A stretch of 64,000 bases of DNA from an uncultured Acidobacteriota bacterium (GTDB lineage Bacteria; Acidobacteriota; Thermoanaerobaculia; UBA5066; Gp7-AA6). The translations under genes were made by a program, and so were the position numbers. Shown here one piece after another: positions 40,744 through 55,291 of the stretch. The stretch's first letter is position 1. The number at the start of each line of letters is the position of its first letter. The DNA is taken from NCBI GenBank assembly GCA_963764715.1, contig CAVXTP010000022.1, positions 1 through 64,000 of the forward strand. Reading direction: 5' to 3'. The notes beneath the pieces were generated by a model. It did no database searches and was not told where the DNA came from. It saw only the letters and a program-made list of their open reading frames with translations.

Positions 40744-40820
40744 CGGGGCGTAGCGCAGCCTGGTAGCGCACTCGGTTCGGGACCGAGTGGTCGGAGGTTC
40801 AAATCCTCTCGCCCCGACCA
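40744..40820 (+). tRNA. tRNA-Pro (anticodon CGG)
   Basis: Cloverleaf CGGGGCG...CGCCCCG ACCA; anticodon loop TTCGGGA; GTTCAAATC T-loop. Confidence 0.97.
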
Positions 40821-40829
40821 ATCCTCTCA
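40773..40829 (+). repeat. attL core (3' part of tRNA-Pro plus 9 bp)
   Basis: Identical to 55235-55291. Confidence 0.95.
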
Positions 40830-40830
40830 G

Positions 40831-42003
40831 TCACTTGCGAGAGGAACCCTCGCTCGATCCTAACCCGAGTACGCTCACATTGTCCCTCTTCTGTCCCACT
40901 TCTCCGGATTCGCGGCGGTAGCGCTGCGTCCGCTCTAGCCCCGACCGCACGTCGCGGCCGTCGACGATGTCGTACCTCTCGAAGACCGCGTCGCTGCGGT
41001 GGCCGCTGATGGTGCGGGCGATCGTCGGCGCGACGCCGGCGCGGACCATGTCCCGCACGGCGCTCCGCCGGAGGTCATGGAAGAGCTTCCCGACGTAGCG
41101 CTCCTTCTCGGGATCCGATTCGTCTGCGACCATGCGGCCGACGCCCGCCGCGCAGCAGGCCTTCTGCCACGACTTGCGGAAATCCACTACGGGACGTCCG
41201 TTCGCGTGAAACACGTAGGCGGAGAGCGCCGGACCGTCCGGCCCCTCGAACGTCCGTTTGTTCCACCGTTCCTCGAAGAGGGCACGGAGGTCGTCGTCGA
41301 ACGCGAGCACGCGGCCACGACCGTTCTTCGAATCGAACAGCCGAACCTCGCCAGCCGCCCGGTCCACCTGGTCCCACGTCATGCCGACGATCTCGCCCTT
41401 GCGCCAGCCGGTCAGGTATCCGAAACGCACGACATCGCATACCGGATCCGGGAGCCCGGCCGCGACCTTCTCGAACTCCACCCGCTCGAAGAAGCCGCGG
41501 CGGACGTTGTCCTCGCGCAACATCGGGAAGTGGGGGAGCCGTGAGACCTTGCCCTCCTTCGCAGCCAGCCGATAAGCCGCGCGGAGCGTCTCCACGTACC
41601 TGTTGACCGTTGCGGACGCCTTGGGCTCAGCCAGTTTCCGCTGTTGGAATGCCCGGATCTCGTCGGCAGCGAGAGTGGAGGCTCTCCGTGCTCCGAGCAC
41701 TTCCTCCACCGCCTTCCGATGTGCGCGGAAGGAGACCATCGATTTGGCCCCGCGCATGAGGAGATCCGCCTCGAGTGACTCGAGAAGCTCGGCCACCGTC
41801 AATCGCTCGGCCGCGGGCGGGACGAAGCGGTCGCCTGCAATTTCCTTCCGCTTCGCCTTGAGCGCCCGCCTGGCGTCGTCCTCAGTTGAACCCGCCGGCT
41901 GCCGGTAGTTGCGACCGTTCACGTTGTACGAGATCCACCAGCGTGATCCCCGCTGAAAAATCCGACCGTCACCCCGCATTCCTTCGGCCTCCCTTCTTCC
42001 CAT
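40831..42003 (-). CDS. Phage-type tyrosine integrase
   Basis: N-terminal arm-binding-like GRIFQRGSRWWISY; TGWRKGE, FHDLRRS, GHRS and ERY catalytic motifs; start may be 41979. Confidence 0.95.
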   Translation of the reverse strand: MGRREAEGMRGDGRIFQRGSRWWISYNVNGRNYRQPAGSTEDDARRALKAKRKEIAGDRFVPPAAERLTVAELLESLEADLLMRGAKSMVSFRAHRKAVEEVLGARRASTLAADEIRAFQQRKLAEPKASATVNRYVETLRAAYRLAAKEGKVSRLPHFPMLREDNVRRGFFERVEFEKVAAGLPDPVCDVVRFGYLTGWRKGEIVGMTWDQVDRAAGEVRLFDSKNGRGRVLAFDDDLRALFEERWNKRTFEGPDGPALSAYVFHANGRPVVDFRKSWQKACCAAGVGRMVADESDPEKERYVGKLFHDLRRSAVRDMVRAGVAPTIARTISGHRSDAVFERYDIVDGRDVRSGLERTQRYRRESGEVGQKRDNVSVLGLGSSEGSSRK

Positions 42004-42160
42004 CTGACCGTTCGGGAAACGCCATTTCCTCCGCGCGTTTCACACCGAAATAGTTTTCCAGTGCTTCGTTGACAATGTCGGCCAGATCTTTCCGCTCCTG
42101 CGCCGCGCGGATTTTTGCCGCCTCCCAGAGGTCATCCCGAAGCTTCAGGCTGGTCTTCAT
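41969..42160 (-). CDS. Ribbon-helix-helix regulator
   Basis: KTSLKL beta-strand followed by DDLWEAAKIRA and LADIVNEALENY helices. Confidence 0.75.
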   Translation of the reverse strand: MKTSLKLRDDLWEAAKIRAAQERKDLADIVNEALENYFGVKRAEEMAFPERSDGKKGGRRNAG

Positions 42161-42308
42161 CAGGAATCAGGATATCACAATATCTTGCCCTTGCTTGGGC
42201 GGCCTCGGGCCGCTCGCATTGCTCGACACGTAGTATGCTGCAACGGCATAAGGAATCACACCAAGGATGGAGGCCGAATGGTGGCAGTCAGGACGAAGCG
42301 ATGAAGCC

Positions 42309-42390
42309 GCCGCCTAACCTGCGGGTGCAGCGGACGCGTTCATCGCCTTCGACTCTTCACGCGCCGCTGACCCGCCACCCGTTAGGCGGC
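42309..42390 (+). repeat. attC-like site 1 (intact)
   Basis: GCCTAAC...GTTAGGC cores; L boxes GGTGCAGC / GCTGACC; two unpaired bases in the stem. Confidence 0.85.
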
Positions 42391-42410
42391 CGAAGACAGA
42401 AGGGAGCCTT

Positions 42411-53978: not shown

Positions 53979-54071
53979 TAACTAGTATTCGCGCTCCTCC
54001 GGTTGACCGGCGGCCTGTTACAGATGCAATGAGTACAGAGTTGCGTCAGAACCTCGGTGACAATTTGACGG

Positions 54072-54100
54072 CGCCGCCGTCTCGCCACCCATTAGGCGGC
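54072..54100 (+). repeat. attC-like site 6 (internally deleted remnant)
   Basis: GCCGCC...CGCCACCC-ATTAGGCGGC. Confidence 0.55.
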
Positions 54101-54123
54101 GTCAAGTGACCGTTAGTGGCAGC

Positions 54124-54249
54124 ATGCTACGCCTCGTCCTTTCGGTCTGTCTCTTCGGCGCGGGACTGCTCTGGCTTGTGACGATCGGTGTCTTGCCAAA
54201 CGAACTCCGAGCCTTCTCTACCGAAGTCACCGAACGGCTTGAACGCTAA
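54124..54249 (+). pseudogene. Short signal-peptide-like ORF, possible truncated cassette gene
   Basis: MLRLVLSVCLFGAGLLWLVTIG..., 41 aa, starting 24 bp after attC-like site 6. Confidence 0.3.
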
Positions 54250-55207
54250 TGTCCAATGCCGCCGGGGGGCCACAAGTGCCGAGGCGATATGCCTGCAGAC
54301 GCTGTAGCTCGTGGAGAGTCCGGAGCAAGGAGCGCTCGAGGGTAGTTTCATAGCGGACGACCTTGTCCAGTACATCCTGTGGGGGGAGGGTGTTCTCGAG
54401 TTTCGCCTGCTCCTTAGCTCGCTTCGCCGCCTGGACGGCGACCCGGGCGCGCGCGCAATCCTCGGACGCCCGTTCGCTCATTCGAATCGAGAGACTCTCT
54501 GGGGAGATGCCGACCTTGGCAGAGTAGGCCGCGCAGGCCCTCCTGAGAAGTCCTGGGGTCCACCGTTCGAACGCGTCGAATTCGTCATCTTCGTCCGGGA
54601 TGCCGGGCACCGATACCTCGACGTCCCGGGTGACGAACGCGGCCTTGTACGCCAGCCAGAGGAAGACCACGGCGGCGTTTTTCTCCATGGCCTCATCGTC
54701 TCCGAGCTGTTCAAAGTGATCGACCAGATCGAGCACCGCCTCGGCGTGCTCCAGAGAGGCTGTTGCCTCCTCCAAGTCTGTCGACGAGAATCCGGGTCGT
54801 CCCGCCGGTAGCAACCCGAGCTTTGCCAGAGACTGGTTGCTCTCGATGGCGCTGGTCTCGTACCTGACGACACGACCCAGGCGCCACAGCTGGATGGCAA
54901 TCCTTTCCGTGAGGGCAGCCTCCAGTTCATTAACCGGGGAAGTGCTACTGAATATCGACGCCCGATGGTCTTCCCAAAGCTGGGCGTCCTCCATGCCAGT
55001 GACTACAGGCCGAACGCTCAGAATCCCATGCCGCAGTGCGTTGGCAGACGAGCGCCGTTTCCCCGGTTCAGTTTTGGGGCCACCGCGGCTGGGCCGGTCG
55101 GTGGACTTCCCCTGTCCCTCGGTTGTCCCACTTCCCTCGTTGTCTGGTGTGATCTCTGGGGTCGATCCACCGGCAGAATCCGTGATTTCTTGGTCCTTGT
55201 TACTCAT
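54227..55207 (-). CDS. Conserved hypothetical protein with GPKT..GK..SS.NAL.HG motif
   Basis: GGPKTEPGKRRSSANALRHGI, WRLGRVVRYE and RYETTLERSL..TLHEL segments. Confidence 0.7.
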   Translation of the reverse strand: MSNKDQEITDSAGGSTPEITPDNEGSGTTEGQGKSTDRPSRGGPKTEPGKRRSSANALRHGILSVRPVVTGMEDAQLWEDHRASIFSSTSPVNELEAALTERIAIQLWRLGRVVRYETSAIESNQSLAKLGLLPAGRPGFSSTDLEEATASLEHAEAVLDLVDHFEQLGDDEAMEKNAAVVFLWLAYKAAFVTRDVEVSVPGIPDEDDEFDAFERWTPGLLRRACAAYSAKVGISPESLSIRMSERASEDCARARVAVQAAKRAKEQAKLENTLPPQDVLDKVVRYETTLERSLLRTLHELQRLQAYRLGTCGPPAALDISVQAVR

Positions 55208-55234
55208 TGGATGTCCCTGAACCCCTTCAGAAAA

Positions 55235-55291
55235 CGGTTCGGGACCGAGTGGTCGGAGGTTCAAATCCTCTCGCCCCGACCAATCCTCTCA
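55235..55291 (+). repeat. attR core (duplicate of tRNA-Pro 3' end)
   Basis: 57-bp identity with 40773-40829. Confidence 0.95.

Follow-up and report, generated by a model that had tools for sequence, protein, structure and literature searches.

The escape of gene cassettes from large sedentary integrons is usually credited to mobile integrons on the transposons and plasmids of clinical bacteria. SGI1-type integrative mobilizable elements and integrative and conjugative elements (ICEs) carry a complete mobile integron, with its own integrase gene (intI) and resistance cassettes. Clusters of attC sites lacking an integron integrase (CALINs) comprise at least two such sites and have no integrase of this kind in their vicinity. 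Phage satellites, including phage-inducible chromosomal island (PICI)-like elements, and tycheposons combine variable cargo with an integrase linked to a tRNA, a small regulator, and genes for an excisionase and a primase-helicase. Loot et al. are said to have described, in Nat Microbiol in 2024, the insertion of cassettes at nonclassical attG sites. Here we analyze a tRNA-associated island that carries two CALINs, located in a window of 64,000 nucleotides (the whole stretch of DNA examined; positions 1 to 64,000 of contig CAVXTP010000022.1, assembly GCA_963764715.1) from an uncultured Acidobacteriota bacterium of the genus Gp7-AA6. One named match in our searches, to Vicinamibacterales, is likewise a weak pointer to an acidobacterial host.

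Published reports provide precedents for this arrangement. They state that CALINs may be mobilized in trans by a complete integron (PMC11389934), and both this and the presence of CALINs on mobile elements have already been published (PMC11389934; PMC12614218). Small CALINs have been proposed to arise via the insertion of cassettes into genomes, and the integron integrase IntI inserts cassettes outside attI and attC at 5'-GWT-3' (bioRxiv 10.1101/2022.09.11.507474). The bottom strand of an attC site is described as folding into a hairpin that has extrahelical bases, a central spacer without pairing, and a terminal loop that varies (PMC12614218).

The island is like CALINs, and like single attC sites of this kind (SALINs), in having at least two attC sites with cassettes and no intI nearby. 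It differs in that two CALINs occupy defined slots of a small tRNA element, that their sites are mostly decayed, and that the pairing recurs in the genus. Likewise, it resembles SGI1-type elements and ICEs in that it integrates, has int/xis as well as a replication gene, and carries integron cassettes as cargo, but it lacks intI, has chromosomal-type attC sites, carries S-layer homology (SLH) cargo, and has no identified relaxase. It also shares with phage satellites, PICI-like elements, and tycheposons the same set of integrase, regulator, excisionase, and primase/helicase plus cargo. A sequence-only reading of this DNA, made by a model without database searches, had called the island satellite-like. 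This label is weakened, its basis being int, xis, and primase: packaging, capsid-redirecting, and helper-sensing genes were not found among the island proteins scanned. The same reading did not know the combination as a described system. CALINs and SALINs, attG insertion, and CALINs on mobile elements are all published, whereas the recurrent pairing with islands appears to be undescribed; at the level of listings and abstracts, full-text searches turned up nothing on tRNA islands that lack intI and hold cassettes of a chromosomal integron. Thus, the kind of element is already known, and the new part, as far as we searched, is the recurrent pairing of a chromosomal-integron cassette pool with a tRNA-Pro island lineage, together with a bias toward SLH cargo.

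The boundaries of the island are defined by the following features.

40744-40820, plus strand: tRNA-Pro(CGG) gene, the integration target (ARAGORN; Rfam RF00005, 65.6 bits)
40773-40829: attL, a 57-nt direct repeat that starts inside tRNA-Pro(CGG)
55235-55291: attR, a 57-nt direct repeat that is a tRNA 3' fragment

The attL repeat includes the 3' 48 nt of the tRNA gene and is 100% identical to attR over all 57 nt, in agreement with the att duplication given by the sequence-only reading. A tyrosine integrase gene adjoins the tRNA gene, whose 3' end is repeated directly at both ends of the element, as in other tRNA-integrating elements. The element measures 14.46 kb between the att repeats and has a GC content of 0.64, below that of its flanks. 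The assembly (G000 below) comprises 4.36 Mb in 26 contigs with a GC content of roughly 70%; C6, C15, C17, and C22 are among its contigs, and the window corresponds to C22:1-64000.

Five copies of the 30-nt right half of a repeat are present in the island. When the genome was searched with a 27-nt right half at up to three mismatches, 34 matches were found, of which 31 lie on one strand of C15 and C17 and three in the island; the reversed control gave 0. At up to five mismatches, this pattern has no match outside the C15/C17 array and the island. The left-half pattern gave two five-mismatch matches elsewhere, and the remaining outside matches carry six. The array spans C17:599-8875 and C15:~201000-225688, with the C15 contig end abutting the C17 start and the break falling at an attC. 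Its halves pair into 82-nt units, and a covariance model (R1) built from 33 of these units recovers 41 co-oriented sites in the array. The consensus (GCCTAAC ... GTTAGGC) has R''/R' and L''/L' stems, an unpaired spacer, and bulged bases, with compensatory changes at 6 of 23 pairs. Furthermore, the variable bases 3' of each GTTAGGC could pair with the left flank of the following site but not with that of their own site. We take this switch at R' to be the trace left by crossover at G|TT. With few exceptions, the longest open reading frame (ORF) of an array cassette has the direction of the array and begins 1-75 nt past the cassette boundary.

Directly upstream of the array, about 0.7 kb from its end and in the same orientation as the cassettes, lies an intI homologue.

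C17:9404-10630: host intI (locus L019), with TIGR02249 pieces of 190, 35.5, and 137 bits in three frames

Its similarity to VchIntIA (PDB 2a3v) is split between two frames, one matching residues 6-194 and the other residues 232-317, and none of its pieces reaches the 265-bit TIGR02249 cut-off used for an intact intI. The gene is thus disrupted in this assembly, and sequencing error may lie behind the frameshifts. The host array resembles a sedentary chromosomal integron in its 41 near-identical 82-nt sites, low-GC cassettes, and co-oriented ORFs, and differs in that the intI is frameshifted and has the same orientation as the cassettes. Across the genus, the attC family is present in 37 of 44 genomes and intI above the curated cut-off in 28. 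The possibility raised by the sequence-only reading that IntI acts in trans is supported for the lineage but weakened by the split gene of this host, and the genome search that it recommended for intI and further attC copies yielded this split gene and the 41-site array.

The island repeats are true integron attC sites of the family found in the chromosomal integron of the host. The model is host specific and largely sequence driven (effective sequence number, 1.62). With filters off, it is significant in the window only at 42309-42390 and 43255-43339. These are the two complete sites among six attC-derived sites, and the four others are halves or relics.

42309-42390, plus strand: attC_a, intact; R'' GCCTAAC at 42312-42318, R' GTTAGGC at 42381-42387; R1, 93.2 bits, E 1e-19
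43255-43339, plus strand: attC_b, near intact; R' reads CTTGGGC, with the crossover G changed to C at 43330; R1, 57.4 bits
46377-46447, plus strand: attC_c, loop and right half; L'-R' (46421-46447) matches the consensus at 27/27; R''-L'' missing; no fold
47255-47311, plus strand: attC_d, left half matching the consensus at 24/25; right half shortened, deleted, or degenerate
51270-51402, plus strand: attC_e, degenerate long site; right half 22/27, R' GTCAGGC at 51393-51399; R1, 16 bits, E 0.2; no fold
54009-54100, plus strand: attC_f, degenerate; right half 23/27, R' ATTAGGC at 54091-54097; no fold

attC_a is identical to the array site at C17:7770-7851 at 80 of 82 positions. The fold of its bottom strand has an energy of -31.7 kcal/mol (z -5.5; none of 200 shuffles did as well), compared to -33.1 kcal/mol (z -5.7) for that array site, and in both folds there is an internal loop of 5/2 nt, with two bases bulging from the 3' arm. 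It is also the only one of the six sites with full inverse core boxes (R'' RYYYAAC and R' GTTRRRY). The fold of attC_b is no better than shuffles (z +0.97). In attC_d, R'' is present and R' reads GTTAGCG; the GTTAG of this site (47305-47309) shares bases with the xis-like gene at its stop codon. The remaining two sites, attC_e and attC_f, flank the second cassette block. The island thus holds two model-significant and four derived attC sites and no TIGR02249 match, as in a CALIN. The sequence-only reading was right that an integron integrase is absent from the island and that the repeats belong to the attC type, although only two of the six are complete and one folds.

Two further observations concern attC_b. 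A 12-nt string, CTTGGGCGGCCT, is present at 42194-42205, approximately 100 nt upstream of attC_a, and again at 43330-43341, in the mutated R' of attC_b; no recombination scheme that we tried accounts for its two copies. Also, the longer complementarity of the attC_b flanks, which requires a 4-nt bulge, may be due to chance.

The attC-derived sites delimit five cargo genes, all on the plus strand, in two blocks. Block 1 (42.3-47.3 kb) holds three one-gene cassettes, and block 2 (51.3-54.1 kb) holds one two-gene cassette. Cassette lengths assume a boundary at the G|TT of R'.

42382-43330: ORF1 cassette, 949 nt; ends complementary at 10/10
42411-43181, plus strand: ORF1, 256 aa, exported, with a C-terminal SLH domain (37.8 bits)
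43331-46438: ORF2 cassette, 3108 nt; its own R'' is missing, so there is no complementarity figure
~43349-46384, plus strand: ORF2, surface protein of ~1000 aa with GloVer-repeat, TIG, and SLH domains (TIGR03803, 517 bits, 13 stretches)
46439-47305: ORF3 cassette, 867 nt; ends complementary at 10/10
46460-47206, plus strand: ORF3, 248 aa, no Pfam, NCBIfam, or PHROG match
51394-54091: shared ORF4-ORF5 cassette, 2698 nt; ends complementary at 8/10, with an unusual TCAGG start mirrored by CCTG
51633-52823, plus strand: ORF4, with an N-terminal signal, an SLH domain (36 bits), and beta-propeller-like repeats
52824-53978, plus strand: ORF5, an ORF4 paralogue with an SLH domain (28.9 bits)

The complementarity between the 5' ends of these cassettes and the flanks of their own R'' corresponds to the crossover footprint seen in the array. 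The GC content of block 1 (0.621) matches that of the array (0.623-0.631) and not that of the xis/PrimPol core (0.68) or the genome (~0.70), which points to an array-like origin for block 1. When the DNA of block 1 was compared to 43 other genus genomes, matches (67-80%) were confined to the SLH-domain region.

As the sequence-only reading had it, the five cargo genes appear to encode secreted proteins, with SLH (PF00395) in four of the five and a signal-like N terminus, by a crude hydrophobicity measure, also in four of the five. A gene caller chose an alternative start for ORF2 that gives 974 aa (P0120). ORF4 and ORF5 are 45% identical, and the best in-genome paralogue of ORF1 is 43% identical. 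At least 141 SLH domain matches exist in the genome. Among cassette ORFs of the chromosomal array, exported proteins number 23 of 39 by the same measure, whereas SLH is rare (2 of 39); the bias toward SLH is thus found on islands, in four of the five cargo genes here and in two of three in a related island of another species (G058). Judging cargo function by domains alone, the SLH proteins may decorate the cell envelope, and the surface remodeling proposed by the sequence-only reading may follow from these same domains.

Side observations were made for two cargo groups. The C-terminal half of ORF3 (residues 133-248; 46856-47203) is a conserved domain without a Pfam family, of which the genome has seven more copies at 36-56% identity; copies also occur near int homologues in two other genomes (G047 and G055). 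For ORF3, the ESM Atlas returned nothing above 0.78. In addition, a second tandem pair like ORF4 and ORF5 is located at C6:290495-292779 and is 54-56% identical to ORF4; the model finds no attC there.

The cassettes point opposite to the backbone genes and lie in two intergenic backbone slots. The six backbone genes are all on the minus strand, and this division, with all cargo on the plus strand, was likewise described by the sequence-only reading and is upheld by gene calls and family scans.

40831-42003, minus strand: tyrosine integrase (int), 390 aa (PF00589, 52.6 bits; phrog_1)
41969-42160, minus strand: Arc-like ribbon-helix-helix (RHH) regulator, 63 aa (phrog_6506, E 1.3e-6)
47306-48169, minus strand: excisionase-like (xis-like) helix-turn-helix (HTH) protein (PF12728, HTH_17, residues 218-268; TIGR01764; phrog_66)
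48221-50317, minus strand: PrimPol-DUF3987 primase/helicase, 698 aa (PF09250, 65.6 bits; PHROG primase/helicase families)
50376-51143, minus strand: 255-aa protein (hyp255), no family in four libraries
54227-55264, minus strand: 345-aa all-helical terminal protein of a very large unnamed family (AlphaFold2 pLDDT 82)

The island integrase is not among the eight TIGR02249 matches of the genome and is not an integron integrase. The RHH regulator has a Pfam 56B_RHH match under the cut-off, the real start of the excisionase-like gene is probably further downstream, and the DUF3987 assignment comes from PrimPol homologues that bear PF09250 and PF13148. The only PADLOC match among island proteins is to the HTH of the xis-like protein. 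The family of the 345-aa protein, with members of ~300 aa, has 9839 representatives at E <= 0.001 and 2071 at 1e-10. Searches with this protein found nothing in Pfam, nothing below E 0.07 among PDB sequences, and nothing at E <= 0.001 with Foldseek, while the ESM Atlas gave unnamed clusters only. Relatives of hyp255 and the 345-aa protein were sought by tblastn and hidden Markov models in 80, 14, and 46 PrimPol loci, and a single weak match was found in the 140; neither protein is similar to its positional analogues in locus L034.

No capsid, packaging, relaxase, or type IV secretion system family was found among 10 proteins scanned in Pfam and NCBIfam (oriT was not part of the search), and PHROGs gave no capsid or packaging family for nine island proteins. 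The absence of capsid and conjugation genes claimed by the sequence-only reading holds to this extent. Genes for hijacking the capsid or packaging of a helper were also not found with these libraries among the scanned proteins, two backbone proteins having no assigned function. An Rfam scan of the window at gathering thresholds found three tRNAs only and no match at the repeats. Scans for sigma-70 promoters (0 sites) and terminators (fewer than in shuffles) were uninformative on expression.

Homologues of the PrimPol-DUF3987 protein are common in Acidobacteriota, Planctomycetota, other metagenome-assembled genomes, and IMG/VR contigs. Of the 19 loci that hold both genes, eight have int downstream of primpol on the same strand, with a gap of 0.68-3.5 kb compared to 6.2 kb here, and a tRNA gene lies beside int in four of these loci. 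By this comparison, the cassette blocks are insertions into a compact backbone. A 2.5-kb element in the related genome G006 (locus L174; G006:C1 9892-12460) consists of int (73% identical) and an xis-like gene (50%) between two copies of the same att and has no cargo. More att copies and int fragments follow this minimal element, so that tRNA-Pro(CGG) there bears a tandem array.

PrimPol was not found in the genomes of 40 relatives, a count that is a floor given the strict search setting. A scan of genome contigs with a single protein confirmed 0 of 47 stretches, and a metagenome scan with a 74% PrimPol homologue (P0002) did not return that protein's own contig. Logan contigs from four runs of four studies include ORF2 at up to 99.4% identity (6 differences in 1003) and ORF1 at ~96%, as well as int at ~96% in run X1 and a PrimPol piece at 98% in run X4. 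These data are at the contig level and blind to circles and empty sites, and the gaps (ORF3, most of the backbone, and block 2) are not evidence of absence. Joints in these contigs have sides of 20-34 letters inside repeated attC/SLH sequence and hence were not interpreted. One X1 contig matches 41922-42267 and then diverges from the island.

Homologues of the island integrase occur in 16 of the 44 genus genomes, and we compared 15 int loci from other species of the genus. At four of these loci (G045, G058, G044, and G055), attC-derived sites lie beside int. The first, G045, has a 6.8-kb island at tRNA-Pro(GGG) with 32-nt repeats and an int that is 41% identical; two attC sites (63 and 46 bits) flank a globin-like cassette. 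The 4.6-kb island of G058 is located at tRNA-Pro(CGG), with the same att core as here. It has an intact attC (63 bits) at a distance of 254 nt from the start of int. This site is oriented toward int as attC_a is here, and a small ORF and then two SLH proteins follow it. In G044, an attC right half (24.8 bits) lies beside an int fragment. In G055, an attC left half lies between int (74% identical) and an ORF1-like SLH gene; it scores 66.5 by local alignment, versus a shuffle maximum of 49, and only 17.9 bits with the model. Cassettes with the genus-specific attC thus reside on small self-integrating islands in at least three species, with a fourth represented by the 24.8-bit right half and a fifth by the local alignment.

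Two of the loci without attC, G006 and G016, have an ORF1-like SLH gene beside an int fragment, and in G016 this gene lies between int and xis, as here. ORF1 shares 31-38% identity with the ORF1-like proteins of other islands, whereas int of G006, G016, and G055 is 71-77% identical, and ORF1 has a closer paralogue in its own genome. For these reasons, we consider the island cargo to be of one family but nonorthologous. The comparison of related elements that the sequence-only reading called for therefore revealed different, nonorthologous SLH cargo beside attC-derived sites, but most of the int loci lack attC.

As a separate observation, a 38-nt repeat, CCCTCCCAACCGTGCCACTGAAA..., has four direct and three inverted copies in or near the G045 island (locus L173; G045:C6), at positions 9990-13154, 11028-11100, and 19373-19392. 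It may be a small element resembling miniature inverted-repeat transposable elements.

Other att-flanked segments lie next to the island and at a second copy of its target. Positions 1-40828 of C22, through tRNA-Pro(CGG), recur over ~40 kb at C6:8704-47389 with ~91% identity, representing either a large segmental duplication or a co-binned related strain. Beyond the second tRNA-Pro(CGG) copy lie three segments in tandem (C6:87-8759, locus L101), 2.6-3.3 kb in length. A copy of the same att, 50-59 nt long, closes each of them, and none has an integrase. They encode BNR/sortilin-like, methyltransferase, PD40, and Kelch proteins. These segments look like integrase-less att-flanked modules accreted in the manner of cis-mobilizable elements, and the island Int might move them in trans. 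To the right of attR (window 55207-56473), a gene for an AlkZ-like DNA glycosylase is followed by a degenerate third att/tRNA 3' copy (61%) at 56417-56473, and this segment may be an older att-flanked module.

We consider it probable that the island carries two CALINs that were put on an integrative element by IntI acting in trans and that are now largely frozen cargo. The element presumably excises and reintegrates via its own tyrosine integrase and excisionase-like protein, and its circle is presumably replicated by the PrimPol-helicase, with no transfer or packaging genes of its own among the proteins scanned. The cassettes derive from the pool of the genus-wide sedentary chromosomal integron. 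Once in a cell with active IntI, the island would have received excised chromosomal cassettes through one of two routes: attC x attC recombination with an attC already resident next to the int operon, or insertion at nonclassical GWT (attG-type) sites. Most sites have since decayed, and intI is broken in this genome. The cargo is therefore now essentially fixed and would travel only with the island.

With respect to the recombination route, the right junction of block 1 is a G|TT that falls within the xis-like gene's stop codon, and this agrees with the GWT consensus published for attG insertion (bioRxiv 10.1101/2022.09.11.507474). However, both blocks begin with an attC, which is not expected from a single attG insertion, and this arrangement fits attC x attC recombination at a resident site better.

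Several observations weigh against an origin of the blocks by IntI action in trans. The attC calls come from the host-specific, sequence-driven model described above rather than from the general attC model of IntegronFinder. Only one of the six island sites has an attC-like fold, the other five having z values of -0.8 to +1.0, which makes present IntI-dependent mobility of the cargo doubtful. The left junctions of both blocks are undefined, and so an attG route would apply to one junction at most; the full attC that heads each block is likewise unlike the product of a single attG insertion. Moreover, no attC is present at 11 of the 15 related int loci. Our searches yielded no close relative of the whole island, and for this reason we infer cargo turnover from more distant islands. 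Finally, the present mobility of the island is presumed from contig-level data.

The strongest alternative is that the island is a working cassette dock, in which an attC beside the int operon is maintained, host IntI loads and exchanges cassettes there, and the Int and Xis of the island export them. Such a dock would account for the intact, array-like attC_a and for the intact G058 site, which shares the att core, the orientation relative to int, and SLH cargo. It would also suit the divergence of SLH cargo relative to int (31-38% versus 71-77%, with a paralogue of ORF1 at 43% in its own genome) and the intact intI in 28 genus genomes. However, five of the six island sites are not fold competent, attC_b has lost its crossover G, the host intI is broken, and G006 and G016, with the closest int genes, show no attC. 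Orientations also differ among G045, G055, and G000, suggesting independent insertions. We therefore regard a working dock as unlikely. Because four of the six sites are halves or relics, one of six folds, and the host intI is split over three frames, the island looks like a past recipient of cassettes and not a working loader. Of the mobile cassette-loading platform envisaged by the sequence-only reading, the receipt of cassettes is retained, whereas active loading is unsupported.

It is improbable that the island is the remnant of an integron that was once complete and has since lost intI. Integrase loss is the usual explanation given for CALINs (PMC11389934; bioRxiv 10.1101/2022.09.11.507474), but the latter report also states that most CALINs are not near intI pseudogenes (bioRxiv 10.1101/2022.09.11.507474). 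Here, the TIGR02249 search of the genome gave no match in the island, the two blocks are separate and lie in different backbone slots, and the attC type is that of the chromosomal array.

An assembly artifact, in which the 82-nt attC repeat joined array cassettes into the island contig, is highly improbable. The assembly does consist of multiple contigs, the array itself is broken at an attC (C15 end, C17 start), and the 40-kb stretch is present twice at 91% identity. However, among the six island sites are four degenerate variants that are unique and have no counterpart in the array, the backbone junctions are unique sequence with two separate blocks, and comparable island-plus-attC arrangements exist in three or four other assemblies.

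Although the sites are GC-rich palindromes after genes and Rfam has no match at them, the chance that they are repetitive extragenic palindrome-like or terminator sequences unrelated to integrons is minimal, because this is contradicted by the array anatomy: 41 co-oriented copies directly downstream of an IntI homologue matching PDB 2a3v, core boxes of RYYYAAC/GTTRRRY, and flank complementarity that switches at the R' box.

A past recipient island bears on how the cassettes of stationary integrons spread. In this uncultured, high-GC environmental genus, cassettes reside on self-integrating islands with no mobile integron involved. At present we give only a modest chance to a broader proposal, namely, that the tRNA-Pro island lineage is a two-recombinase relay in which IntI docks mainly SLH cassettes at a kept attC, and Int and Xis (with PrimPol) carry them to new genomes. 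If this were true, the cassettes of stationary integrons would be horizontally mobile without a mobile integron. An active relay would be a simple route for cassette export and for strain-level variation of the cell surface. If the relay is inactive, the locus is still a clean natural case of cassette insertion outside integrons followed by site decay. In either case, the island shows one way for the genes of a stationary integron, mostly for surface proteins, to board a mobile vehicle.

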